Source: an uncultured Microthrixaceae bacterium (GTDB taxonomy: Bacteria; Actinomycetota; Acidimicrobiia; Acidimicrobiales; VFJN01). From it: a stretch of DNA of 64,000 nucleotides. The stretch is taken from assembly GCA_963846555.1 (NCBI GenBank), contig CAWJWI010000004.1:2043616-2107615 (forward strand), given 5' to 3'. Positions 3,208 to 56,925 of the stretch are shown here, one piece after another. How positions within the stretch are numbered: position 1 is the stretch's first letter; each line of letters begins with the position of its first letter. A program made the position numbers and the translations under genes. The notes under the pieces are model-generated. The model had not been told where the DNA came from. It ran no database searches and saw only the letters and a list, made by a program, of their open reading frames with translations.

Positions 3208-4235
3208 GGCGCGGTCCCTTCTTCGATCATGGCGGTCAGCACGTCGACCGCCACGGACGCGTCGACAGCGGGCACGACCTCCACGCCGTCTGCGCCGTCG
3301 AGCACGAACGTGAGCCCGTCGAGGGCCTTCTTGTCCCGGCCCATGAGCTCGACGAGCGCAGCCGGGTCCGAACCGGCAGGGAGGCTGCCGTCGAGGTCGT
3401 AGGCGGACAGGACGGAGTCGTGGTCGGCCACGCGAGCGTCGTCGACGCGCCCGAGGCGGCGGGCCAGCCGGGCCGCGTAGCGAAGCCCCACCGCGACAGC
3501 CTCTCCGTGGCGCAGGTCGTAGCGGCCCGCGGTCTCGAGGGCATGGGCCAGCGTGTGGCCGTAGTTCAGCGTGGCCCGGCCCCGGCGGTCGGCGGGGTCC
3601 TCGCGCTCGTCGCCGGCCACGACACCGGCTTTGATGCGCACTGCGGCGGCGATCCGCTCCTCGAGGTCCAGGGAGAGCAGGTCGTCGCCCGTGAGGAAGT
3701 GGTACTTGGCCAGCTCACCCCGGCCGGAGGCCAGCTCGCGCCGTGGCAGGGTGGCCAGGGCGTCGGTGTCGCATACGACGGCGAGCGGCTGCCAGAACGC
3801 GCCGACCAGGTTCTTCCCCTCGGGCAGGTTCACGCCCGTCTTGCCTCCGATGGCCGCGTCGACCATGCCGAGGAGCGACGTGGCCACGTGCACCACCGGG
3901 ATGCCACGGTGGTAGGTGGCCGCCGCGAACCCCGCCACATCGGTGACCACGCCGCCGCCGACGGCCACCACGACGTCGCCCCGGTTGAGCCCCCAACGGG
4001 CCCAGGCCGAGCAGAGCGAACCAACGGTGGTGAGGTCCTTGGCCGATTCGCCGTCGCCGATCTCGAAGCGCTCGTGCTCGATGCCCGGATCGACGTCGAG
4101 CGGGATCCCGGCCTGGGTGACGATCGCAGCCCGCCTTGCCGTCGACGGCAGCAGGGCGGCCAGCTCCGAGCGCGCTCCCGGGCCGACGAGCACCGGATAC
4201 CGGCGGTCGCCGAGGTCGACGTCGACGGTGATCAC
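3204..4235 (-). CDS. aroB: 3-dehydroquinate synthase
   Basis: 343 aa with GGGVVTDVAGFAAATYHRGIPVVHVATSLLGMVDAAIGGKTGVNL and NYGHTLAHALE. Confidence 0.92.
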   Translation of the reverse strand: MITVDVDLGDRRYPVLVGPGARSELAALLPSTARRAAIVTQAGIPLDVDPGIEHERFEIGDGESAKDLTTVGSLCSAWARWGLNRGDVVVAVGGGVVTDVAGFAAATYHRGIPVVHVATSLLGMVDAAIGGKTGVNLPEGKNLVGAFWQPLAVVCDTDALATLPRRELASGRGELAKYHFLTGDDLLSLDLEERIAAAVRIKAGVVAGDEREDPADRRGRATLNYGHTLAHALETAGRYDLRHGEAVAVGLRYAARLARRLGRVDDARVADHDSVLSAYDLDGSLPAGSDPAALVELMGRDKKALDGLTFVLDGADGVEVVPAVDASVAVDVLTAMIEEGTAP

Positions 4236-4804
4236 GGGCCCGCCTCGCTGCTGACCCGGGCCCGTTCGTGGTCGCGCACGAGCCGCTCGATGTGCTCGGC
4301 CAGCGCCCGCTTCGGGTGCTCCTGTCCGAGGTGGAAGGGCTGTACGTCGACCGTGATGTCGGCCAGGTCGCGGTAGAGCGGGGCCCGTTCAGCGTGGAGG
4401 CGCACGAGGACGTCTCGCGGCGTCTCCTCCCCGGCCAAGAGGGGCCGGTGCTCTCGCTTGGCGATGCGGCTGGCCAGGAACGCCGGGTCGGCGTCGAGCC
4501 ACACGACCGTCACCTCGGGCTCATGGAGGCGGCGTCGGTTGTCCTCGCGGAGGACGACGCCGCCACCACTTGCGATCACGTGTGGCTGGTGGTGCTCGAG
4601 CAGCTCCTCGAGCACGTCGGCCTCCAACGCACGGAAGCGCTCCTCGCCGTCTGTGGCGAACACCTCCGCGATCGTGCGCTCTGTGATCTCCACGAGCGCA
4701 TCGTCGGCGTCGACGAACTGCCGGTCGAGCCGGGTTGCCAGGCGACGACCCACCGTGGTCTTGCCCGAGCCCATGAGGCCGACCAGCACGACGTGATGGG
4801 CCAT
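4232..4804 (-). CDS. aroK: Shikimate kinase
   Basis: 190 aa with the P-loop VLVGLMGSGKTTVGRRLA. Its start and stop overlap aroC and aroB respectively. Confidence 0.9.
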   Translation of the reverse strand: MAHHVVLVGLMGSGKTTVGRRLATRLDRQFVDADDALVEITERTIAEVFATDGEERFRALEADVLEELLEHHQPHVIASGGGVVLREDNRRRLHEPEVTVVWLDADPAFLASRIAKREHRPLLAGEETPRDVLVRLHAERAPLYRDLADITVDVQPFHLGQEHPKRALAEHIERLVRDHERARVSSEAGP

Positions 4805-12180: not shown

Positions 12181-14778
12181 GAGCCGTCGAGGCCGGCCGC
12201 CGCCCGGACCGTGTCGAGGGCCGCGTCGAGGCCGGCCGCGTCCTTGCCGCCGGCCACGGCCAGCAGCGGATCCTTGCCACCGCCGCCCTTGATCAGCTTC
12301 TTGGCCTCTTCGAGGAGGGCCGAGGCGTCGAAGCCGCTGTCAGGCTTGACGGCTGCGACGATCGCCGCGCCACCCCCCTCGGGGGCGGTGCCGAGCACCA
12401 CGGCCCTCATGCCGGGCTGGTCGCGCAGAGCGAGGGCGAGGTCGCGCAGGCTGTCGCGCTCGAGCCCGTCCACCCGTTCGACGACGACGCCTTCGACCGC
12501 CCGCCCGGCCAGCTCGCCCGCCTGGTCGCCGGCGGCCTGGCGCTTCAGCACCTTGATCTCGTCGCGCAGGGCCTTGACCTCGTCGAGCCGCTTGCGAGCC
12601 CCCTCGACGACCTCGCCCACGGGCACGTTCAGAACCTCGGCCACCCGGGCCAGCAAGGCCTCCTCCTCGCGGAGGCGCTCGATGGGCCCCGTGCCTGTCA
12701 CGGCCTCGATGCGGCGCAGGTTCGAGCCGATCGAGCTCTCGGAGACGATCTTCACGGGCCCGATGTCGCCCAGAGCCCTCACGTGGGTGCCTCCGCACAG
12801 CTCGGTGGAGCGGCGGCCGGCCTCGAGGACGCGGACGTCTCGCCGTACTTGTCACCGAAGAAGGCGATGGCGCCCAGGGCCATGGCCTCGGCCTTGGTGG
12901 TCTCGTAGTGGCGCACCGTGTCGTTGTGGAGGATCTCCTCGTTGGCGAGGTCTTCGATCTGGCGCACCTGATCGGCGGTGAGGGCATCCGCCGGCCCGAA
13001 GTCGAACCGCAGCCGGTCGGGGTCGACGAGCGAGCCCTGCTGCTGGACGTCTGTCGCCGAGGACCTTGCGCAGAGCCCAGTGGAGGATGTGGGTGCCCGT
13101 GTGGTTGCGCCGGATGGCGTCCCGACGGGCCACGTCGAGGGTGGCCGTGACCTCGTCGCCCGCTTCGAGGGCGCCCTCGGTGATGCGGACGAGGTGGCGG
13201 TGCAGGCCGGGCAGACCGTATGTCGTGTCGCTCACCTCGGCCTGGCCCGCCTCGCCGACCAGCACGCCGGTGTCCCCGACCTGGCCACCGGACTCGGCGT
13301 AGAACGGGGTGCGGTCGAGGAAGACCGACGCCGTGCCGTCCTCGCCGGGTACCACGGCCAGCACGGTGGCCTTGGTCTCGTTCTCCTCGCGGCCGACGAA
13401 CTCCGTCGCGCCGAAGCGGTCGAGGATCTCTTGGAAGGAGGTGAGGTTGGCGTAGAGGTCCGAACCCGCCTTGGCGCCCGCCTTGGAGACCTGCTGGGCC
13501 TTCTCGAGGGCGGCGCGGTAGCCGGCGTCGTCGACCTCGATGCCGAGCTCGGCGGTGATCTCCTGGGTGACCTCGAGCGGGAACCCGAAGGTCTCGTAGA
13601 GGTCGAAGGCGACGTCGCCGCCGAGCGCCTGGCCCTCGCCCAGCTCGGACAGCTTGGAGTCGAGCAGGGTCGTCCCCCGCTTCAGCGTCTGGCGGAAGCG
13701 GTCCTCCTCCCGGCTGACGATGCCGGTGATGCGGTCCTGGTCGGCCCGCAGCTCGGGGTAGCCGTCGGCCATGGCGTCGACGACCGCCGCGATCAGCGGG
13801 GCCGAGAGGTCGCGCTCGACGCCGAGGAGGTAGGCGTACCGGACGGCGCGCCGAATGATGCGACGCAGCACGTAGCCCCGATCCTCGTTGGACGGGACGA
13901 TGCCGTCGGCCACGAGGAACGTCATCGTGCGACCGTGGTCAGCCAGGACCTTGAGGGCGATGTCGGTGCGGTCGTCGGTGCCGAGGCGAACGACCGGTGA
14001 TCGACTGGGCCACCTCCACGAGCTGGTTGAGGGGGTCGACGTCGTAGACCGTGTGCGTGCCGTTCAGGGCGGTGAGCATCCGCTCGAGCCCCGCCCCCGT
14101 GTCGATGCCAGGCTTGGGCAGGTCGGTGAGCTCGCCGTCGTGGCCCCGGAAGTACTGCGGGAAGACGAGGTTCCAGATCTCGACGTAGCGGTCCTCGGCG
14201 GCCGGGTTCTCGGGGCCGCCCTCGGGCCCGAAGTCGGCGCCGTAGTCCCAGAAGATCTCCGAGCTGGGACCGCAGGGGCCGATGTCGCCCATCTCCCAGA
14301 AGTTGTCCTTGTCGAGCCGCTGTATGCGGTCGCGGGGGAAGCCCACGGCGTCGGCCCAGATGTCTGCCGCTTCGTCGTCGCTGACGTGGACGGTGACCCA
14401 CATGCGATCGCCGTCGAGGCCCAAGACGTCGGTGAGGAGCTCCCACGCCCACGGGATGGCCTCGGCCTTGAAGTAGTCACCGAAGCTGAAGTTGCCGAGC
14501 ATCTCGAAGAAGCTCAGGTGGCGGGGCGTGCGACCGATGGCGTCGAGGTCGTTGTGCTTGCCGCCCGCCCGGACGCACTTCTGGACGGTGGCGGCGCGGG
14601 CCGGATCGAGGGAGGTCGACTCCTCGCCCAGGAAGATGGGGACGAACTGCATCATCCCCGAGTTCGTGAACATCGGGGCCGTCGGATGGGTCGGGATGAG
14701 GCTCGACGACGGGAGCAGCGTGTGCTGCTTGGCGACGAAGAACTCGTTCCAGGTTCGACGGAGACCGTTGGCGTCCAT
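12177..14778 (-). CDS. alaS: Alanine--tRNA ligase (3 or more frame interruptions)
   Basis: Four consecutive ORF fragments (13939..14778, 12852..13925, 12779..12967, 12177..12782) carry FTNSGMMQFVP, RHLSFFEMLGNFSFGDYFK, EIWNLVFPQY, DTGAGLERM, PSNEDRGYVLRRIIRRA, HTGTHILHWALR and the C-terminal DHHA1-like part. Frame switches lie near 13995, 13055 and 12838. The summed length (~867 codons) fits AlaS. Confidence 0.9.
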
Positions 14779-14814
14779 GGGTGGATCGAGCCTACCGGCC
14801 GTCTCCGGTAGGAC

Positions 14815-15078: not shown

Positions 15079-15444
15079 CTAGCGCTCGTTCCGGGTGCGC
15101 CGGAATCGGCGCGCCGCCCGTCCGGTGCCCGACGCCAGGGCCACGGCCTTGATGGCCGGGTTCGAGAAGAGCAGGTAGGCGAGCCGAGACGCGGAGTCGA
15201 CCGTGCCCCCGATGGACTCGGCCGTGCCGAGAACGCCGTCGAGCCGCTCGAGCTCCGCGTTGGCGTTGCGCACCGTGTGGCCCAGCTCGGTCATGACGGG
15301 GACCGTCTCGGTGCGCAGCAGCTCGACGGTCTCCCGCACCGCCTTGAGGGTCTTGGTGATCGACACGAGGGCCACGGCGAGGAGGACCACCGCGACGACG
15401 CTGGCGATGGCCACGATGAGCGCGGCTAGCTCTTCCGCGCTCAC
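15079..15444 (-). CDS. DUF948 domain membrane protein
   Basis: 121 aa with an N-terminal TM helix (LAALIVAIASVVAVVLLAVALV) followed by a coiled region (TLKAVRETVELLRTETVPVMTEL...) typical of actinobacterial DUF948 proteins. Confidence 0.55.
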   Translation of the reverse strand: MSAEELAALIVAIASVVAVVLLAVALVSITKTLKAVRETVELLRTETVPVMTELGHTVRNANAELERLDGVLGTAESIGGTVDSASRLAYLLFSNPAIKAVALASGTGRAARRFRRTRNER

Positions 15445-16754
15445 GGCGTCTCGCTCGGGTTGGTCCTGCGTTCCATGCGCGTGCGGATCTCCTGCTCGAA
15501 GCCGTGGTCGGACGGGTCGTAGTACCGGCGGTCGCTCACCTCGTCAGGGAGGTGCTGCTGCGGGACCCAGCCCTCGGGGTGGTCGTGAGGATAGTCGTAG
15601 CCCACGCCGTGCCCGAGCTTCTGCGCCCCCTGGTAGTGGCCGTCGCGCAGGTGCACGGGCACCTCCACCGAAGGCCCGTGGCGCACATCCTCCAGAGCGG
15701 CCCAGATCCCGAGGGCGGCCCGGTTCGACTTGGGCGCCGTGGCCAGGTGGACGACGGCCTGAGCCAGGTTGAGCTGCGCCTCGGGCAGGCCGACGTGCTC
15801 GACGGCGTGAGCCGCGGCCACGGCCACCACCAGGGCCTGAGGGTCGGCCATGCCGACGTCCTCGCTCGCCGCGATGACGATGCGCCGAGCGATGAAGCGG
15901 GCGTCCTCCCCCGCCTCGAGCATGCGGGCCAGCCAGTAGAGGGCGGCGTCGGGGTCAGAGCCGCGCATGCTCTTGATGAACGCCGAGATGACGTCGTAGT
16001 GCTCGTCGCGCCCGTAGCGCAGGGCCTTCGTGCCCAGCGCCGCCTCGGCGTCGGGCAGCGTCACGTTCGCAGCGCCGCCACCCGCCCGGGCCCGGGCGAT
16101 GGCGACCGCGACCTCGAGGCTGGTCAGCGCGTGGCGACCGTCGCCGTTGGAGTGGCCGGCGAGGTGCTCGAGGGCATCCTCGTCGGCGGTGGCCTCTTCG
16201 GCGCGGAGCCCCTTGTGGAGGAGGGCGCGGGCGGCGTCGGCGTCGAGGGCGTTGAGCCGGAACAGCGTCGACCGGCTCAGCAGCGGTGGGTTGACCTCGA
16301 AGAACGGGTTCTCGGTGGTGGCGCCGATGAGCGTGATCAGCCCGGTCTCGACGCCAGGGAGGAGGGCGTCCTGCTGCGACTTCGTGAACCGGTGGACCTC
16401 GTCGAGGAACAGGATCGTGCCCTGGCCCCGCTCGCCGAGGCGGTGCTTGGCCCGCTCGAGCACGTCACGAACGTCCTTGACGCCGGCGCTGACCGCCGAG
16501 AGCTGTTCGAAGGCCTTGCTCGTGTGGGCGGCGATGGCCTGGGCCAAGGTCGTCTTGCCCGTCCCCGGCGGCCCCCAGAGGATCACCGACGACAGGCGGT
16601 CGGCCTCGACGAGGGTGCGCAACGGCCGACCGGGCCCGAGGAGCTGCTCCTGCCCGACGATGTCATCGAGCGTGCGGGGCCGCAGACGGGCGGCGAGAGG
16701 CGCGTTGCGGGCCAGAGCATCCTCCGCGGCCGAGGAGAACAGGTCGTCAGCCAT
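15441..16754 (-). CDS. rarA: Replication-associated recombination protein A (RarA/MgsA AAA+ ATPase)
   Basis: Intact 437-aa ORF with LRPRTLDDIVGQEQLLG, the Walker A LWGPPGTGKTTLA, LFLDEVHRF, LIGATTENP and the C-terminal MgsA domain (YDVISAFIKSMRGSDPDAALYWLARML). Confidence 0.92.
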   Translation of the reverse strand: MADDLFSSAAEDALARNAPLAARLRPRTLDDIVGQEQLLGPGRPLRTLVEADRLSSVILWGPPGTGKTTLAQAIAAHTSKAFEQLSAVSAGVKDVRDVLERAKHRLGERGQGTILFLDEVHRFTKSQQDALLPGVETGLITLIGATTENPFFEVNPPLLSRSTLFRLNALDADAARALLHKGLRAEEATADEDALEHLAGHSNGDGRHALTSLEVAVAIARARAGGGAANVTLPDAEAALGTKALRYGRDEHYDVISAFIKSMRGSDPDAALYWLARMLEAGEDARFIARRIVIAASEDVGMADPQALVVAVAAAHAVEHVGLPEAQLNLAQAVVHLATAPKSNRAALGIWAALEDVRHGPSVEVPVHLRDGHYQGAQKLGHGVGYDYPHDHPEGWVPQQHLPDEVSDRRYYDPSDHGFEQEIRTRMERRTNPSETP

Positions 16755-16843
16755 CGGTAGCCGACGCTACCGCCACCACCCCTGGACCGCATCCCTTGAT
16801 GCCCTTACAGTCCATCTCAGTCCTTCCCCCTCACCGACCCACG

Positions 16844-16893
16844 GCTTCTGTGCGCAGCCAGCCCCGCAGGGCGGGGCGGCGTGCGCACAGATC
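16844..16893. repeat. Palindromic repeat, copy L (left flank of the DUF559 gene)
   Basis: GCTTCTGTGCGCAGCCAGCCCCGCAGGGCGGGGCGGCGTGCGCACAGATC. It is an imperfect hairpin (CTGTGCGCA/TGCGCACAG outer stem, GCCCCGC/GCGGGGC inner stem). It matches the reverse complement of 17842-17891 at 44/50 positions. Confidence 0.85.
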
Positions 16894-16915
16894 CACGCAC
16901 CCCTAGGGGGTTGAG

Positions 16916-17833
16916 ATGTCCATCGAGCTCTCCACCGTCATCGACGAGCTCGCGCGAGCCCAGCACGGGCTCGTCACCACCGACCAAGCTCTCAAGGCGC
17001 TCGGACCGAGCCGCAAGGACCGTTGGGTCTCGGAGCGACGCCTGCTGTGCGTGCAGCCTCGGGTCTTCCGGGTCGCAGGTGCACCCCAGACCTGGCACCA
17101 GAGCCTGATGGCAGCCGCCCTCACGACGGGTGGGGTGATCTCGCACCGATCGGCGGCCGAGATGTGGGGCCTGATCCAGCCCGCCGGGTACGTCGATGTG
17201 TCGATCCAACCCGCCCGTGCCCCCCGTGCCCAACCTCCGGTCATCGTCCATCGGATCAAGGACCTGCACCCAGAGCTGGCGAACGAGCGTGAGGGGCTCA
17301 GGCTGACAGATCCCGTTCGGACCCTCATCGACCTCGGGCTGGTCCTGCCGACCTGGGCCGTGCGCGACGCGCTCAGCCGCGGCATCACGACCCGTCTGTT
17401 CGCGGTCGGTCAGGTCGACCGCCTTCGCGACGCCCTGGGCCGCAAGGGGCGGAACGGAACGGGGGTGGTCCGGCAGCTGCTCGACGAGCGCGCCCTCATG
17501 GCCGGGGAGGACAGCGTGCTCGAGCGCCGTCTGATGCTCCTGGCTCAGCGGCACGACCTCCCACCGATGTCCATCCAGCACGAGGTCTGGCACGCAGGGC
17601 GCTTCATCGCCCGCATCGACGGCGCGTACGCGGACCGAAAGCTGGCCATCGAGGTCGACGGGTACGAGCACCACTCCTCCCCCGACGCCTTCCAACGCGA
17701 CCGCGAGAGGCAGAACCGGCTCGTGGCCCTCGGATGGACCGTGCTCCGGTTCACGTGGAAGGACGTCGTGCAACGGCCCGCATCGGTCGCCAAGCAGATC
17801 AGCGACGCCATCAACCGCCTGCCGGCTGCCTGA
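16916..17833 (+). CDS. DUF559 (Vsr/endonuclease-like fold) protein with an AbiEi_4-like N-terminal HTH
   Basis: Intact 305-aa ORF. The N-terminus (LARAQHGLVTTDQALKALG...RVFRVAG...SHRSAAEMWGL) matches AbiEi-type antitoxin-like domains. The C-terminus (DGAYADRKLAIEVDGYEHHSSPDAFQRDRERQNRLVALGWTVLRFTWKDV) is the DUF559 signature. It is the only plus-strand gene within a ~21-kb minus-strand run. Confidence 0.8.
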   Translation: MSIELSTVIDELARAQHGLVTTDQALKALGPSRKDRWVSERRLLCVQPRVFRVAGAPQTWHQSLMAAALTTGGVISHRSAAEMWGLIQPAGYVDVSIQPARAPRAQPPVIVHRIKDLHPELANEREGLRLTDPVRTLIDLGLVLPTWAVRDALSRGITTRLFAVGQVDRLRDALGRKGRNGTGVVRQLLDERALMAGEDSVLERRLMLLAQRHDLPPMSIQHEVWHAGRFIARIDGAYADRKLAIEVDGYEHHSSPDAFQRDRERQNRLVALGWTVLRFTWKDVVQRPASVAKQISDAINRLPAA

Positions 17834-17841
17834 GGTCCTCC

Positions 17842-17891
17842 GATCTGTGCGCAGGGAGCCCCGCATCGCGGGGCTGGCTGCGCACAGAAGC
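17842..17891. repeat. Palindromic repeat, copy R (right flank of the DUF559 gene, inverted relative to copy L)
   Basis: GATCTGTGCGCAGGGAGCCCCGCATCGCGGGGCTGGCTGCGCACAGAAGC. Its outer 24 nt are identical to the reverse complement of the outer 24 nt of copy L. Confidence 0.85.
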
Positions 17892-17893
17892 TG

Positions 17894-19623
17894 TCAGGTC
17901 TTGGGTGGGAGGAGCCTGAGGCCCAGGTCTCTCAGCTGGGGCTCCTCGACCTTGGTGGGAGCCGAGGTCATGGGGTCGACGCCGGACTGGGGCTTCGGGA
18001 AGGCGATGACCTCGCGGATGTTCTCCTCGCCGGCCAGGATGGCGGCCAGGCGGTCGATGCCGAAGGCGAAGCCACCGTGCGGCGGGGCGCCGTAGCGGAA
18101 CGGGGTCAGGAAGAACCCGAAGCGGCGCTCGGCCTCCTCCTCGCCGATGCCGAGCAGGTCGAAGATGCGCTGCTGCAGGTCGGGCTCGTGGATCCGGATC
18201 GACCCGGAGCCCAGCTCCCAGCCGTTCAGCACGAGGTCGTAGGCCTTCGACCGCACCGACATCGGGTCGGACTCCAGCCGGTCGAGGTCCTCAGGGTGCG
18301 GGCGGGTGAACGGGTGGTGGGCGGGCTTGGGCGTGCCGTCGTCGGCCCGGCCCACGAACATCGGGAAGTCGATGACCCAGACGTACCGGTACGGCCCCTC
18401 GTGGACGGGCGGGCGGCCCAGGTCGTTGCGCAGCGTGCCCAGCACCTCGCAGGCCATGTGCCACTCGTCGGCGACGAGGAGCAGCAGGTCGCCCGCCTCC
18501 GCCTCGAGGGCGGTGACCAGCTCGGCCTGCTCGGTGTCGCTGAGGAACTTGGCCACCGGGCTCTCGAGGGCGCCGCCGTCGCCGACCTTCATCCAGACCA
18601 GGCCCTTGGCGCCGAGCTGCTTGGCCCGGTCGGTGAGCCCGTCGAGCTTGTTGCGGCCGAAGTCAGCTGCTCCCCCGGCCACCCGGAGGCCCTTGATGGC
18701 ACCGGCTGAGGCGAACGCCTTGAACTCGGTGGCCGCGAAGACCGGCGTGAGCTCGACGAGCTCCATGCCGAAGCGCAGGTCCGGCTTGTCGCTGCCGAAC
18801 CGGTCCATGGCGTCGTGCCAGGTGATCTGCGGGATCTCGCCGGGGCGCTCGCCGGTGACCGCCTCGGCCGCGTCGAGCACGGACTCGGACACGAACGCCA
18901 GCACCTCGTCCTGGGTGACGAAGCTGGCCTCCGCGTCGAGCTGCATGAACTCGTACTGACGGTCGGCCCGCAGGTCCTCGTCCCGCAGGCAGCGGGCGAT
19001 CTGGTAGTAGCGGTCGGTGCCGCCGACCATCAGCAGCTGCTTGAAGAGCTGGGGCGACTGCGGGAGCGCGTAGAAGGAGCCCGGCACCTGGCGGGACGGC
19101 ACGAGGAACTCGCGGGCCCCCTCGGGCGTCGACGGCATGAGCATCGGGGTCTCGACCTCGACGAAGTCCTGCCGCTCGAAGGCGGCCCGGATGGCCGAGT
19201 TCACCTTGGCTCGGATGCGCAGGTTGCGCTGCATGCGGTCGCGCCGCAGGTCGAGGTAGCGGTAGCGCAGGCGGATCATCTCGTCGACGTCGTCGGCCCG
19301 AGCGTCGATGGGGAACGGGGGCGGTTCGGCCGCTGAGAGGATCTCGACCGTGCAGTCACCGACCTCCACGTCGCCGGTGGCCGAGCGCATCGTTGCGGGT
19401 GCCGTCGGGGCGTTCGCGAACCGTGCCGGTGATGCGCACCACGTACTCGCTGCGCAGGTCGGCCGCGCCGTCGACGACGCATTGGATGACGCCCGTGTGG
19501 TCGCGCAGGTCGATGAAGGCGAGGTGCTCGCCGTGCTCCCGGCGGCGCCCGACCCAGCCGCACAGCGCCACCTGCTCCCCCGCGTGTCAGGGCCCGCAGC
19601 TCCCCACAGCGGTGGGTGCGCAT
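17894..19623 (-). CDS. aspS: Aspartate--tRNA ligase (2 or more frame interruptions near the 5' end)
   Basis: ORF 17894..19645 carries [61 protein letters not shown] and [15 protein letters not shown]. The true N-terminus is spread over two other frames ([10 protein letters not shown] in 19276..19623; [30 protein letters not shown] in 19356..19571). Switches lie near 19580 and 19380. Confidence 0.88.
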
Positions 19624-19682
19624 CAGGTCGGTGGGCGTCGGTCACTGCGTCTCCAGGAGGTTCGGGGGGTGGAACAACGTTG

Positions 19683-20939
19683 TCACCGCGTCGAGGTGAG
19701 GTGCACCACGAGTTCGGCCATGGGCACCGAGATCTGCTCGCCTGCCGTCAGGTCGCGGACCGTGGCCGTGCCGCCGGACCGCTCGTCGTCGCCGATGATG
19801 ACGGCGGTCCCGGCCCCGCTCTTGGCGGCCGCCTTCATCTGCGACTTCATCGACCGACCGTCGAAGGCCCGATCCACCGACAGCCCGGCCCGGCGCAGCT
19901 CGGCGGTCAGCGTCACCGCCACCTCGCCGCCGGTCGTGTCGATCACGAAGACGTCGATCAGCCTCTCGGGCGGACCGAACACGCCCTCGGCGTCGCAGGT
20001 GAGCAGCACGCGCTCGATGCCCGATCCGAACCCGATCCCGGGGGTCGGCGCTCCGCCGAGCTGCTCGATGAGCCCGTCGTAGCGGCCTCCGCCGAGGATC
20101 GTCGACTGGGCGTTGCCGAGGGCGTCGCTCTGGAACTCGAAGAGCGTGTGGGTGTAGTAGTCGAGGCCCCGCACGAGGTTCTCGTCGATCTCGAAGTCGA
20201 TGCCCAGCGGCTCGCAGCCCAGCCTGCACCCGCTCGCCGTGGGCCACGGACTCGGCGTCGAGGCTGTCGGCCATCCGCGGCGCGTCGACGAGGACGGCCC
20301 GGGTCTCCTCGCGCTTGGAGTCGAGGACGCGCAGCGGATGGTCCTCGATCTTGGCCGCGTCGTCGGGTGCGAGGTCATCCGACCGCTCGCGCAGCCAGGC
20401 CTGGAGCACTGCGGCGTAGGCGACCCGATCGGCCGGCGTGCCCATGAAGTTGAGGACGAGCCGCCACTGCTGCAGCCCGAGTGCCCTCAGGTAGTCGTGG
20501 CCGAGGGCGATGACCTCGACGTCGACATCGGGGTCGGCGCTGCCGATGGCCTCGATGCCGACCTGGTGGTGCTGGCGCAGTCGGCCGGCCTGGGGTCGCT
20601 CGTAGCGGAAGGCGGGGGTGGCGTACCAGACCTTCCAGGGCGTGTGCGGATGGTGCTCGACGAAGGCCCGGGCCACCGACGCGGTGCCCTCGGGGCGCAG
20701 CGCGACGTGACGGTCGCCCTTGTCGTGGAAGTCGTACATCTCCTTGGCCACGACGTCGGTGCCCTCGCCGATGCGCTGGAAGACGCCGATGTCCTCGAAC
20801 ATCGGCGACTGGATCAGGCCGTACCCGAGCCCGGCCGGCGACGTCGGCGAACATGGCCAGGAGCGCCTGCCAGCGAGCCGATTCAGGAGGCAGGACGTCC
20901 GGGTGCCCTTCGGCGCGCGGAAGTCGGACGTTCAGGCAC
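19683..20939 (-). CDS. hisS: Histidine--tRNA ligase (3 or more frame interruptions)
   Basis: Fragments carry FRAPKGTR / LPPESARWQALLAMFADVAGRA / MFEDIGVFQR...RPEGTASVARAF...YATPAFRYERPQAGRLRQHHQVG / RGLDYYTHTLFEF, GGGRYDGL, GFGSGIERV and the anticodon-binding tail. Switches lie near 20905-20925, 20828 and 20204 (a CCC run). The GTG start at 20937-20939 is tentative. The total of 419 codons fits HisS. Confidence 0.85.
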
Positions 20940-53740: not shown

Positions 53741-55834
53741 ATGAACGCGAGGGGGACCCGCGTGCAGCTCTTGTCCATCCGAGAAGATCCGCAACGTCGC
53801 CTTGGTCGGCCACGGGGGCGCCGGCAAGACGACGCTGGCCGAGGCCCTGCTGCACCGGGCCGGCGCCATCAACCGGCTGGGGCGGGTGGAGGACGGCACG
53901 ACCGTCTGCGACCACGACCCCGAGGAGCAGCGTCGGGGCCTCTCGCTGTCGCTCGCCGTCGCACCGTTCGAGTGGAAGGGCCACAAGGTCAACCTCGTCG
54001 ACACCCCCGGCTACGCCGACTTCATGGGCGACGTGGCTGCCGCCCTGCGGGTCGTCGACCTGGCCGTGTTCGTGGTGTCCGCCGTCGACGGCGTCGAGGT
54101 GCAGACCGAGGCCATCTGGCGGGAGGCGGCCCGGCTCGGCGTTCCCCGCATGATCTTCATCAACAAGCTCGACCGGGAGCGGGCCAGCTTCGAGCGCACG
54201 CTCGACCAGCTCCGCGACCGGCTCGGCGCGGGCGTGGCGCCCCTCGAGCTGCCCATCGGCGAGGAGGCCGACTTCCGTGGCATCGCCGACCTGCTCACCG
54301 ACACGGCCCACGTCTACGAGGGCGGCGTGCCCCGCACGGAGCCCATCCCCGACGACATGGAGGCCCTCGAGCACCAGGTCCACGACAACCTCGTGGAGGG
54401 CATCGTGGTGGCCGAGGATGCCCTCCTCGAGCGCTACCTCGAGGGTGACGTCCCGACGCTCGACGAGCTCGAGCACGCCCTGACGCTCGGCATCGAGGCG
54501 GCGAGCGTGTTCCCGGTGGTCTGCGGATCGGCGACGGGCGAGGTCGGGATCGACCGCCTGGCCGACTTCCTCGTCGAGATCGGTCCGCCCGCCGGCCGAC
54601 CGCCCCACCACCGTCACGGCCGGCGACATCGAGGTGGAGTGCCCGCCGACCCCGCGGGCGACCCGCTCGCCGTTCGTGTTCAAGACGATCGCCGATCCGT
54701 TCGTCGGCCAGCTCTCGCTGTTCAAGGTGCTGTCGGGCACGATCCGCAACGACGATCACCTCGTCAACAGCCGCACCGGCGCCGACGAGCGCCTGCACGG
54801 CCTGTTCGTCGTGCGGGGGCAAGGACCACGAGCCAGCCGACGCCCTGGCTGCCGGCGACATCGGCGGCGTGGCCAAGCTGGTCGGCACGGCCACCGGCGA
54901 CACGCTCGCCGCCACGGGCACGCCCGGTGGCGGTCCCGCCGATCGAGCAGCCTCCGGCGGTGCTGTCGATGGCGGTGGTGCCCGAAGACGCAGGCCGACG
55001 ACGACAAGCTGGCCACCGCCCTCCACCGCCTCCAGGAGGAGGACCCGGGCCTCGTGGTCGACCGCGACGAGGAGACGCACCAGACGATCCTGCGGGGCGT
55101 CGGCGAGACGCACCTCGCGATCGCCCTGGAGAAGCTGGAGCGCAAGTTCGGCGTGAGGGTCACCACCGAAGACGTGCGGGTGCGCTATCGGGAGACGATC
55201 ACCGAGCCGGCCGAGGCCGAGGGCCGGCACAAGAAGCAGTCCGGCGGCCACGGCCAGTTCGCGGTGGCGAGCATCCGGGTCGAGCCGCTCGAGCGGGGCG
55301 CGGGCTTCGAGTTCGTGGACAAGATCGTCGGCGGGGCCATCAGCCGGAGCTACATCCCGGCCGTGCGAGCGCGGCGTCGCGGAGACCATGGCCCATGGAG
55401 GCGTGAACGGCCATCCCGTCGTCGACGTGCGGGTGACGCTCGCTCGACGGCAAGGAGCACAGCGTCGACAGCTCGGAGATGGCGTTCCGCATCGCCGGGC
55501 GCCTCGCCTTCCGGGCAGGCCATGGCCCAGGCCGGCCCGGTCGTGCTCGAGCCGATCTCCCGGGTCGACGTCACCGTGCCCTCGGACCTGCTCGGCGACG
55601 TGATGGGCGACCTCAACGCCCGCCGTGGCCGAGTGCAGGGCACCGAGCCCGGCGACGCGGGCGAGCAGGTCGTCTACGCCGTCGTGCCCGAGAGCGAGCT
55701 GCTGCGCTACGCCATCGAGCTGCGGTCGCTCACCGGCGGCCGGGGACGGTTCCGGGCCGAGCACGACCACTACGACGTCGGTTCCCGCCCACCTCGTCGA
55801 GGCCATCCGCCGCGCGGTGCACGAGGCAGACTGA
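53741..55834 (+). CDS. Elongation factor G-like GTPase (EF-G2-type paralogue; 6 or more frame interruptions)
   Basis: G1 is IRNVALVGHGGAGKTTL, G3 is LVDTPGYADF (Tyr where canonical EF-G has His) and G4 is FINKLD. Domains II-V follow (FVFKTIADPFVGQLSLFKVLSG, DDDKLATALHRLQEEDP, GETHLAIALEKLERKFGV, KKQSGGHGQF, VVLEPI...GDVMGDLNARRG, LRYAIELRSLTGGRG). The total is 698 codons. Confidence 0.8.
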
Positions 55835-55838
55835 CCGG

Positions 55839-56344
55839 GTGGCCGATCCGACCCCCCGTCTGACGCCGTCGTCGCCCTTCGCTCGCTCGGCCGCCGCTAC
55901 CGAGGCCTCTTCGCCGGCCTCGGCGACGACGAGTCGCCCGACGACCTGGCCCACCGCAACGGGGCCGACGGCCGCTCGGCCCTCGACCACGTCGTGGCCG
56001 CCACCCGCACGATCACCTTCCTCGGGCGGGCGCTGCGAGCAGGTCGCTCGTCGACGACGACGCCGTCCTGCACCCGGCCGTGACCGACGCAGCCCAGCGC
56101 GAATGGCCCGACGCCGACGGGCACCGTCGACGAGCGCGCGTCGACGAGCTGGCGCGGGCAGGCGGACGACCTCGCCGACCAGGCGGCCAACGTGGCCGCC
56201 GGCGAGTGGGGCCGCGACGGCCCGCGTCGCCGGCCACGACGCCACGGTCTCCGCCGCTGGACGTCCTCTGGGACGCTGTCGACACCGCCGTCGGCCCACC
56301 TCAAGGCCGCCGAGCAGACCCTGGCCCAGGTCCGCGGCCGCTGA
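55839..56344 (+). CDS. Hypothetical protein (about 3 frame interruptions)
   Basis: Stitched reading: MADPTPRL / DAVVALRSLGRRYRGLFAGLGDDESPDDLAHRNGADGRSALDHVVAATRTITFLGRAL / VDDDAVLHPAVTDAAQREWPDADG / ...DVLWDAVDTAV / AHLKAAEQTLAQVRGR*. It is helical and I recognise no family with confidence. Confidence 0.4.
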
Positions 56345-56353
56345 GCACCCCTG

Positions 56354-56402
56354 GTTCTGTGCGCACACAGCCCCGCCGTGCGGGGCTGTGTGCGCACAGA
56401 AC
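56354..56402. repeat. Palindromic repeat, solo copy (perfect 23-bp stem, 3-nt loop) between convergent genes
   Basis: GTTCTGTGCGCACACAGCCCCGC-CGT-GCGGGGCTGTGTGCGCACAGAAC. It belongs to the same family as 16844-16893 and 17842-17891. It lies 10 nt after the plus-strand stop (56342-56344) and 8 nt before the minus-strand stop (56411-56413). Confidence 0.9.
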
Positions 56403-56410
56403 CCGTGAGG

Positions 56411-56925
56411 TCAGGTCAGGTCGGACCAGTCCTCGGGGTTGTCCTCGGTGAAGTGGGCGACGATCTCACCGTCGACGCCGTCGACGAGCACGAGGCCCCG
56501 GGTCCTGGGCGGATCCTCCGCCGAGTAGAGCAGGATGCGCCAGGTGGGCCGGCTGCGGAGGCCGCGCCAGCCGAGCTGGGCCGAGGCGTGGCCGACGGCG
56601 AAGCCGACCTCGCGGGTGGCGGCCACGAGGGCGTCGCGCTCGTCGACGTCGAGGTCCCAGCCCGCGACGAGGTGGTAGGCGCCGAGCAGCACGAGCAGGA
56701 CCCCGGCGAACGAGGAAGCCGCCGTTGACGAGCACGCCGTCGCCCTGGCCGGTGAGCGGCCCACGCCGCGATGCAGCCGGCGCCGCCGAACGAGGTAGAG
56801 GTAGCCGGGGATGCGGCGGCGGTTGTTGTTCGGGAAGACGTAGGGGCCGACGTACGCCGGCGGCGTTCAGGTCGTCGGGCAGCTCGTCGCGGACCTCGGC
56901 GTCGCTCGTGGGTGTCGTCGGCCAT
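56411..56925 (-). CDS. Hypothetical two-TM membrane protein with a soluble C-terminal domain (4 or more frame interruptions)
   Basis: Stitched reading: MADDTH / SDAEVRDELPDDLNAAG / YVGPYVFPNNNRRRIPGYLYLV / FGGAGCIAAWAAH / ...FAGVLLVLLGAYHLVAGWDLDVDERDALVAATREVGFAVGHASAQLGWRGLRSRPTWRILLYSAEDPPRTRGLVLVDGVDGEIVAHFTEDNPEDWSDLT*. Confidence 0.45.

Follow-up and report, generated by a model that had tools for sequence, protein, structure and literature searches.

REP/REPIN-RAYT systems (bioRxiv 10.1101/2022.05.22.493013; PMC3337134) join a single-copy, vertically inherited gene to a short palindrome that flanks the gene and is also dispersed extragenically. Two other described systems bear on the locus reported here. 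AbiEi binds at its own promoter to two 23-bp inverted repeats that lie 3 bp apart (PMC7319586), and the homing endonuclease I-Bth0305I is a multidomain homodimer with a footprint of ~60 bp around a pseudopalindromic core (PMC3239194). Our subject is a gene for an AbiEi-like/DUF559 nuclease fusion, together with the palindromes around it, in a 64,000-nt stretch (hereafter the window) of contig CAWJWI010000004.1 (assembly GCA_963846555.1) from an uncultured Microthrixaceae bacterium of the order Acidimicrobiales. The gene stands between rarA and aspS, with one copy of a 45-nt palindrome on either side, and a third copy lies alone elsewhere in the window. We propose, with an even chance of being right, that the encoded protein has its cognate DNA sites in the palindromes on either side of its gene, in an arrangement that is RAYT/REP-like without being a member of that class. 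The site-gene-site unit itself is ancient, fixed between rarA and aspS, and not recently mobile.

The nuclease gene is a 305-aa open reading frame (ORF) on the plus strand (16916-17833) with Pfam matches to MTES_1575 and DUF559. Its neighbors are rarA (MgsA; minus strand, 15441-16754) and aspS (minus strand, 17894-19645). Copy L, the upstream palindrome, occupies 16847-16891 (16844-16893 with flanks) and ends 24 nt before the start codon. Copy R, the downstream palindrome, occupies 17844-17888 (17842-17891 with flanks), starts 10 nt past the stop codon and leaves 5 nt before the aspS stop codon; the spacing from L to R is 997 nt. An earlier note on this DNA had described these features, and much of its description stands: L and R have the coordinates and sequences it gave, L matches R, read as its reverse complement, at 44 of 50 positions with the outer 24 nt identical, each copy is a hairpin in its own right (a 21+3+21 palindrome), and the nuclease gene is the sole plus-strand gene between base 20 and about 21.8 kb. 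The perfect outer arms of the two palindromes are TCTGTGCGCA and TGCGCACAGA, and a repeat search delimits the L/R pair at 16841-16893 and 17842-17894 (53 nt, 87% complementary). The solo third copy (56356-56400; 56354-56402 with flanks) sits in a 66-nt spacer between convergent genes. It is, as the note had said, a perfect palindrome, save for its loop; its description as two outer-type half-sites is only approximate, since it carries CACA where the outer half-site of L and R has GCCA.

Chance does not account for these three palindromes. When the 64 kb are scanned with a covariance model derived from 30 family members, exactly three sites are recovered, at E 7e-20 to 2e-14, and the next match has E 0.12; the scores are 59.6 bits for L (E 4e-16), 64.6 bits for R (E 1e-17) and 72 bits for the solo copy. 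Folded as single-stranded DNA, the three copies have energies between -25 and -36 kcal/mol, with z scores of -6.3 to -12 relative to shuffled sequence; copy L has -26.2 kcal/mol at z -6.3. No further copies or remnants of DUF559 were found in the window, near the third palindrome or elsewhere: a tblastn search with 70-odd homologues gave chance-level matches only.

The arrangement is conserved. More than 120 orthologue-like proteins share 66-99% identity, and each of the 22 related genomes examined, the most distant with 58% protein identity, has the gene in its rarA-aspS interval; in the readable relatives the shared context runs ruvX-alaS-...-rarA, then the gene, then aspS-hisS. A palindrome occupies the orthologous upstream position in 21 of the 22 relatives having that flank and the orthologous downstream position in all 21 having that one. 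Relatives that carry the gene without repeats, a pattern the earlier note had raised, are not what is seen at this locus, where the repeats accompany the gene. The orthologous palindromes are always 45 nt long, end 19-47 nt before the start codon on the upstream side and start 5-25 nt past the stop codon on the downstream side. Only TCTGTG...CACAGA is invariant; within the arms, positions 7-9 and 15-21 covary and positions 10-14 are often unpaired. Because the whole site-gene-site order is syntenic in 22 relatives to 58% identity, it is an old, vertically inherited unit. Synteny holds for several paralogue families as well. In a lineage further removed (RarA 64% identity; locus L123, 3363-7231), a DUF559 homologue of 39% identity is also found between aspS and rarA, with the strand orientation of these two genes and hence opposite to that in the window. 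It is bracketed by a palindrome of its own, CGTTGGGAC...GTCCCAACG, and its stop codon falls within the downstream copy.

Bracketing extends well beyond the orthologues. A metagenome scan seeded by the protein alone (a two-sequence alignment query) yielded 80 loci totaling 482 kb, about 18 of them rarA-aspS orthologues and the rest paralogues in other contexts. With strand-symmetric scoring, 54 of 72 strong hairpins fall in the gene flanks, defined as -40 to +200 nt from the gene ends, which make up 7.6% of the sequence (binomial p about 4e-45); hairpins lacking any enrichment at DUF559 genes, another possibility named in the earlier note, do not describe these data. A matching upstream/downstream repeat with a score of at least 20 is present at 44 of the 68 loci with both flanks, against control scores that average about 10 and have maxima mostly no higher than 14.5. 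The note's question of whether other DUF559 paralogues are bracketed likewise is thereby answered in the affirmative, and individual cases given below agree. The flank repeats belong to many sequence families (e.g. TTCTTGGCGCGC, TTCTGGCG, CCGTTTTGGCGTCC, AACGCGTGGACGCG and GTCTCGGTGCATC) and keep a constant architecture of outer stem, asymmetric bubble, inner stem and 3-5 nt centre, about 41-59 nt in total. The flanking pair is direct at some loci and inverted at others, and in paralogues the downstream copy frequently overlaps the last codons of the gene.

Three further homologues were met in loci that had been seeded by the hairpin. The homologue in L049 (29% identity) lies between a pair of TCTGTGCGCA-type palindromes. 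That in L026 (33% identity) has copies of a very different palindrome, TTCGGAGGATCCGCTACC..., on both sides, spaced 997 nt apart like L and R; this second family was not found elsewhere in ~40 kb of the L026 genome. The homologue in L025 (41% identity) has a single palindrome (3332-3381), which overlaps the start codon, and no downstream copy; the site may therefore be decaying. The poorly paired centre of the L025 palindrome holds a GGAAGGAG ribosome-binding site, and the GTG start lies in its right arm. In L049 (729-1616, minus strand) the sequence EVSG appears where other homologues have E-x-D-G, a replacement of the candidate catalytic aspartate by which this protein may be inactive, and a run of CACCGCCCCCCGCTG-like tandem repeats lies upstream of the palindrome (1745-1850).

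The same layout occurs in a cultured genome outside the Acidimicrobiia. In Tsukamurella tyrosinosolvens NCTC13231, 41-nt palindromes, TGCGGTGGAT...ATCCACCGCA, stand on both sides of a DUF559 gene whose product is 30% identical across 92% of the query. The two copies are 93% complementary and spaced 995 nt apart; solo copies stand in intergenic spacers in two other records of the same genome. In plasmid and phage collections this Tsukamurella protein was the one full-length homologue, and the few phage matches were to the nuclease domain and covered no more than about half of the query.

Proteins with DUF559/AbiEi domains belong to the most common multicopy proteins that are uncharacterised in actinobacteria, including the clinically relevant Mycobacteriales, and to our knowledge they have no assigned function. 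The protein encoded in the window is predicted, from profile and structure matches, to join two parts: an AbiEi-like module for DNA binding and a homing-endonuclease-like domain of the Vsr/EDxHD type. The putative AbiEi-like module spans residues ~9-200 (16940-17515, plus strand) and comprises a winged helix-turn-helix and an AbiEi C-terminal domain. The PADLOC AbiEi profile matches residues 9-181 (E 2.4e-21), Pfam places AbiEi_4 weakly at the N terminus, and a Foldseek search with an AlphaFold model retrieves the AbiEi antitoxin 6y8q (E 4e-5 over 197 columns). The predicted nuclease domain, residues 227-299 (17594-17812, plus strand), is where Pfam matches MTES_1575/DUF559. There Foldseek retrieves 3r3p, the catalytic domain of I-Bth0305I (E 9e-4, 26% identity), as well as 3hrl, to which a sequence profile also matches (E 4e-4). 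Residues D235, E246, D248 and H253 are invariant in 31 orthologues and are candidate catalytic residues. Searches of Pfam, NCBIfam and PADLOC give only DUF559/MTES_1575 and AbiEi, with no transposase or recombinase family. No gene for an AbiEii (DUF1814) toxin is adjacent; the neighbors are rarA and aspS, here and at all orthologous loci.

The 21+3+21 palindrome fits, by analogy, the descriptions of the AbiEi operator and the I-Bth0305I target. Like the AbiE type IV toxin-antitoxin system, the locus encodes some 200 N-terminal residues that match AbiEi by profile and fold, and its 21-nt arms, 3 nt apart and just downstream of a conserved putative promoter, may be analogous to the AbiEi operator (PMC7319586). 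Unlike that system, it has a fused nuclease domain instead of an AbiEii neighbor, a second site downstream of the gene and more sites in unrelated spacers. With I-Bth0305I the protein shares a predicted Vsr-like catalytic fold with conserved acidic and histidine residues, a multidomain build with a separate DNA-binding region and, as a candidate here, a long (pseudo)palindromic target (PMC3239194). The gene differs in being outside any intron or intein, chromosomal, syntenic and old, and in being flanked by intact candidate target sites, with no gene-less allele among 22 relatives. Within the library that could be searched, full-text queries found no paper linking DUF559, AbiEi_4, MTES_1575 or AbiEi fusions with flanking palindromes.

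Copies of the palindrome also occur away from the nuclease gene. An exact-arm scan of one genome per species recovered 27 sites of exactly 45 nt in metagenome-assembled genomes (MAGs) of Acidimicrobiales and Actinomycetota, several per genome. The two arms change together: 87% of cells are paired, against 73% after shuffling, and both sides have changed in 97 cells against 39. Short intergenic spacers hold the family sites, whether the adjoining genes are convergent, tandem or divergent, and from the hairpin-seeded sites alone the element looks like a generic REP. Close pairs of palindromes are commoner than a rough copy-number estimate predicts, and tandem doublets occur in L039 (3551-3665) and L048 (750-901).

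Related genomes differ in their solo copies, which are gained and lost. In two relatives, the counterpart of the spacer with the window's third copy measures only 6 and 15 nt and is free of palindromes, and a third relative has a variant hairpin in the orthologous spacer. Conversely, the spacer between thrS and a HIT gene contains a 45-nt palindrome in three relatives and none in the window or in L136. One relative, L139, has three extra small genes (96, 61 and 81 aa; 3581-4526) between genes of 180 aa and 165 aa, where the window and the other relatives have a short spacer only. Beside the solo palindrome in the window, the ORF at 56411-56925 corresponds to the C-terminal 84% of a hypothetical protein of ~170-190 aa, which has no Pfam domain and recurs across Acidimicrobiales metagenomes at 89-99% identity.

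Over the 33 variable nucleotides of the palindrome, the upstream and downstream copies share an identity of 0.73 within a genome and 0.45 between genomes. When solo copies from four genomes are compared with the flanking pairs of 23 genomes, the pair of the same genome ranks 1st, 1st, 4th and 1st, and the closest pair to the window solo copy is the window's own. Solo copies carry the sequence of their own genome's flanking pair, so copies tens of kilobases apart evolve in concert.

In these respects the locus parallels REP/RAYT systems: a single-copy, vertically inherited gene, syntenic here in 22 genomes, lies between two copies of a palindrome; further copies are dispersed extragenically (the window has three copies in all, and others occur in MAG loci, as solo copies at other spacers of four genomes and in Tsukamurella); paralogues of the gene have differing cognate repeat families; and the dispersed copies turn over between relatives while staying homogeneous within a genome. 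The flanked protein, however, is an AbiEi-like/Vsr-type nuclease rather than a Y1 HUH transposase. The orthologous palindromes end in TCTGTG/CACAGA, and those of other families in different sequences, whereas RAYT-type repeats have GTAG or CGTC tags. Copy number here is apparently tens per genome rather than hundreds, and the flanking pair may be direct or inverted. Because the enzyme differs and there is no GTAG/CGTC tag, the locus is not a REP/RAYT member.

The region between rarA and the start codon of the nuclease gene contains a putative promoter for that gene on the plus strand (16783-16811), placed by conservation and consensus: a -35-like TGGACC (16783-16788), a 17-nt spacer and a -10 TACAGT (16806-16811). 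At 15 orthologous loci TACAGT is nearly invariant, and a hexamer of the type T[TG]G[AC]C precedes it by 17-19 nt; a strict promoter scan of the region returned no prediction. Relative to the transcription start that this placement would give, copy L lies at about +29 to +73. The overlapping block at 16790-16840, strongly conserved also at L050-L141, reads TTACAGTCC..TTTCAG..CTTCCCCC; a C-rich box and a repeated CAGTCC are further features of it. Some 10 nt ahead of the rarA ATG, the opposite strand has a TAGCGT/TACGGT box, whose position suggests a leaderless rarA transcript. The 10-bp palindrome CCCCTAGGGG described in the earlier note is present one base from the position given there (16900-16909), overlapping the G-rich ribosome-binding region; it is not conserved at orthologous loci, and we rejected it as a functional site.

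Copy L would thus lie in the 5' untranslated region of the nuclease mRNA, between the conserved promoter-like box and the ribosome-binding site, and the downstream copy follows the stop codon or, in paralogues, overlaps it. The palindromes could accordingly act as RNA, controlling stability, attenuation or translation of the nuclease mRNA from both untranslated regions, with solo copies serving as stabilisers or terminators for other genes. Strong covariation in the stems would suit such a role. We nevertheless consider it quite improbable. A strand-symmetric test of stem mismatches counted 39 G:T against 29 A:C (p 0.27); this difference is not significant, and the sense strand thus has no excess of G:U-compatible mismatches and no sign of an RNA-only role. 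The hairpins have no match in Rfam (best E 0.77, far under the gathering score), solo copies occupy spacers of every gene orientation, and structure alone does not explain why copies in one genome have a common stem sequence. A related view takes the palindromes for generic hairpins, REP-like or terminators, that have no relation to the protein, insulate or terminate around a potentially toxic gene of opposed orientation, and accumulate in tolerant spacers. Their very stable stems, their single occurrence in convergent, tandem and divergent spacers, their presence around unrelated genes (DLH, SDR, HemD) and the position of the downstream copy between convergent genes, in the window and at 19 of 26 paralogue loci, are all as this view expects. 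We judge it unlikely, since it leaves unexplained the flank-matched repeat sequence that each paralogue family has for itself, the roughly 35-fold enrichment at DUF559 flanks and the match to AbiEi operator geometry. The upstream copy, moreover, lies between divergent genes and downstream of the promoter-like box. An identity as intrinsic terminators was rejected for the window palindromes: no T-run follows either stem, and a terminator scan finds no site at them. Integron attC cassettes, an idea prompted by the central bubble of the imperfect palindromes, were likewise set aside, there being no GTTRRRY-type ends, integrase or array.

The earlier note had read the locus as a candidate mobile cassette. 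Its observation of bracketing is real and proves general, but current mobility by way of terminal inverted repeats finds no support. A hairpin-gene-hairpin cassette might be a transposon, a free-standing homing-endonuclease gene or a circle that integrates at solo palindromes, with the rarA-aspS copy old and immobilised. Paralogues are many and their contexts varied, yet they share the bracketed layout and a unit length of about 995-997 nt; the nuclease domain is similar to that of a homing endonuclease; solo palindromes could be empty sites; and the opposite orientation of L123 is what inversion or re-insertion between flanking palindromes would produce. Hairpin repeats at the ends of a ~1 kb nuclease-coding unit also recall terminal-inverted-repeat transposons, miniature inverted-repeat transposable elements (MITEs) and the subterminal hairpins of IS200/IS605 elements. 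Against this stand the following results. Cassette pairs of at least 78% nucleotide identity are all homologous far beyond the palindromes, which gives no sign of recent transposition, and in no case did nearly identical cassettes turn up in differing contexts. All 22 relatives have the gene at the locus, and the empty rarA-aspS sites with a single hairpin that the note had suggested looking for were not seen among them; a RarA search for such sites returned relatives of at least 80% identity only, and every locus examined carried the gene. No target-site duplication was found beside the L/R repeats in the window, as the note itself had reported, and no recombinase or transposase is present. 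The ends do not behave as the terminal inverted repeats that the note had proposed: each is a full palindrome, the pair is direct or inverted depending on the locus, and the palindrome also occurs singly or around DLH, SDR and HemD. Multicopy identical elements, which transposons and MITEs would show, were not found here. A mobile cassette therefore seems to us a rather poor prospect.

The reading in which the flanked gene's own protein recognises the palindromes is the most economical, because it explains the family-specific match between the two flanks, the DUF559 enrichment, the operator-like geometry and position, and the concerted evolution. In the mechanism that we envision, two protomers would bind each palindrome. 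Binding at the upstream site, just downstream of the conserved promoter, could lead to autorepression. Nuclease action at the sites may then be followed by repair and gene conversion, by which copies would be homogenised and new ones occasionally seeded.

Several observations weigh against this proposal. No recognisable repeat pair was found at about 35% of homologue loci, and in L053 the gene has been kept while most of the upstream palindrome is lost. Pairs of the TCTGTGCGCA type, 0.8-1.06 kb apart, also bracket unrelated genes: DLH (dienelactone hydrolase) with a 105-aa ORF in L032 (93-1203), SDR (short-chain dehydrogenase) in L040 (6604-7478) and HemD in L041 (6675-7724). Extra cognate copies number two in the 274 kb around the genes, a seemingly low copy number. 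The arm-to-arm covariation fits a hairpin, a cruciform or a symmetric duplex site alike, and concerted evolution could stem from ordinary gene conversion or from another trans-acting factor. Finally, the AlphaFold model of the protein is of moderate confidence (mean pLDDT 68), good at both ends and poor in the middle.

Several housekeeping genes in the window appear to be divided between reading frames. The hisS gene reads as two overlapping ORFs (19642-20802 and 19683-20378), the N-terminal ORF of alaS (about 13900-14800) runs into nonsense, and an EF-G-like gene (54300-55900) has discontinuous Pfam domain matches. Because these genes are intact in relatives, the splits are probably assembly indels and not pseudogenes.

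We further suggest, as a tentative and on balance doubtful extension, that AbiEi-Vsr genes and their palindromes form a second, independently evolved and long-lived partnership between a nuclease and a repeat, parallel to RAYT/REPIN and Actinomycetota-wide, in which the nuclease would bind the palindromes specific to its genome, repress itself by way of the upstream copy and, through cleavage-induced gene conversion, make, homogenise and spread solo copies. We regard the finding as of fairly high interest, since it assigns a concrete, testable DNA target to a domain of unknown function that is very common. A family-specific palindrome on both sides of the gene supplies a predicted target for each protein, which makes function directly testable. 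Such proteins would be programmable-looking nucleases with long sites, and their specificity would have diverged together with many natural targets. If the protein does maintain the dispersed copies, it would represent a second enzyme class that sustains REP-like repeats over the long term, and this would bear on the origin of persistent, vertically inherited repeat families.

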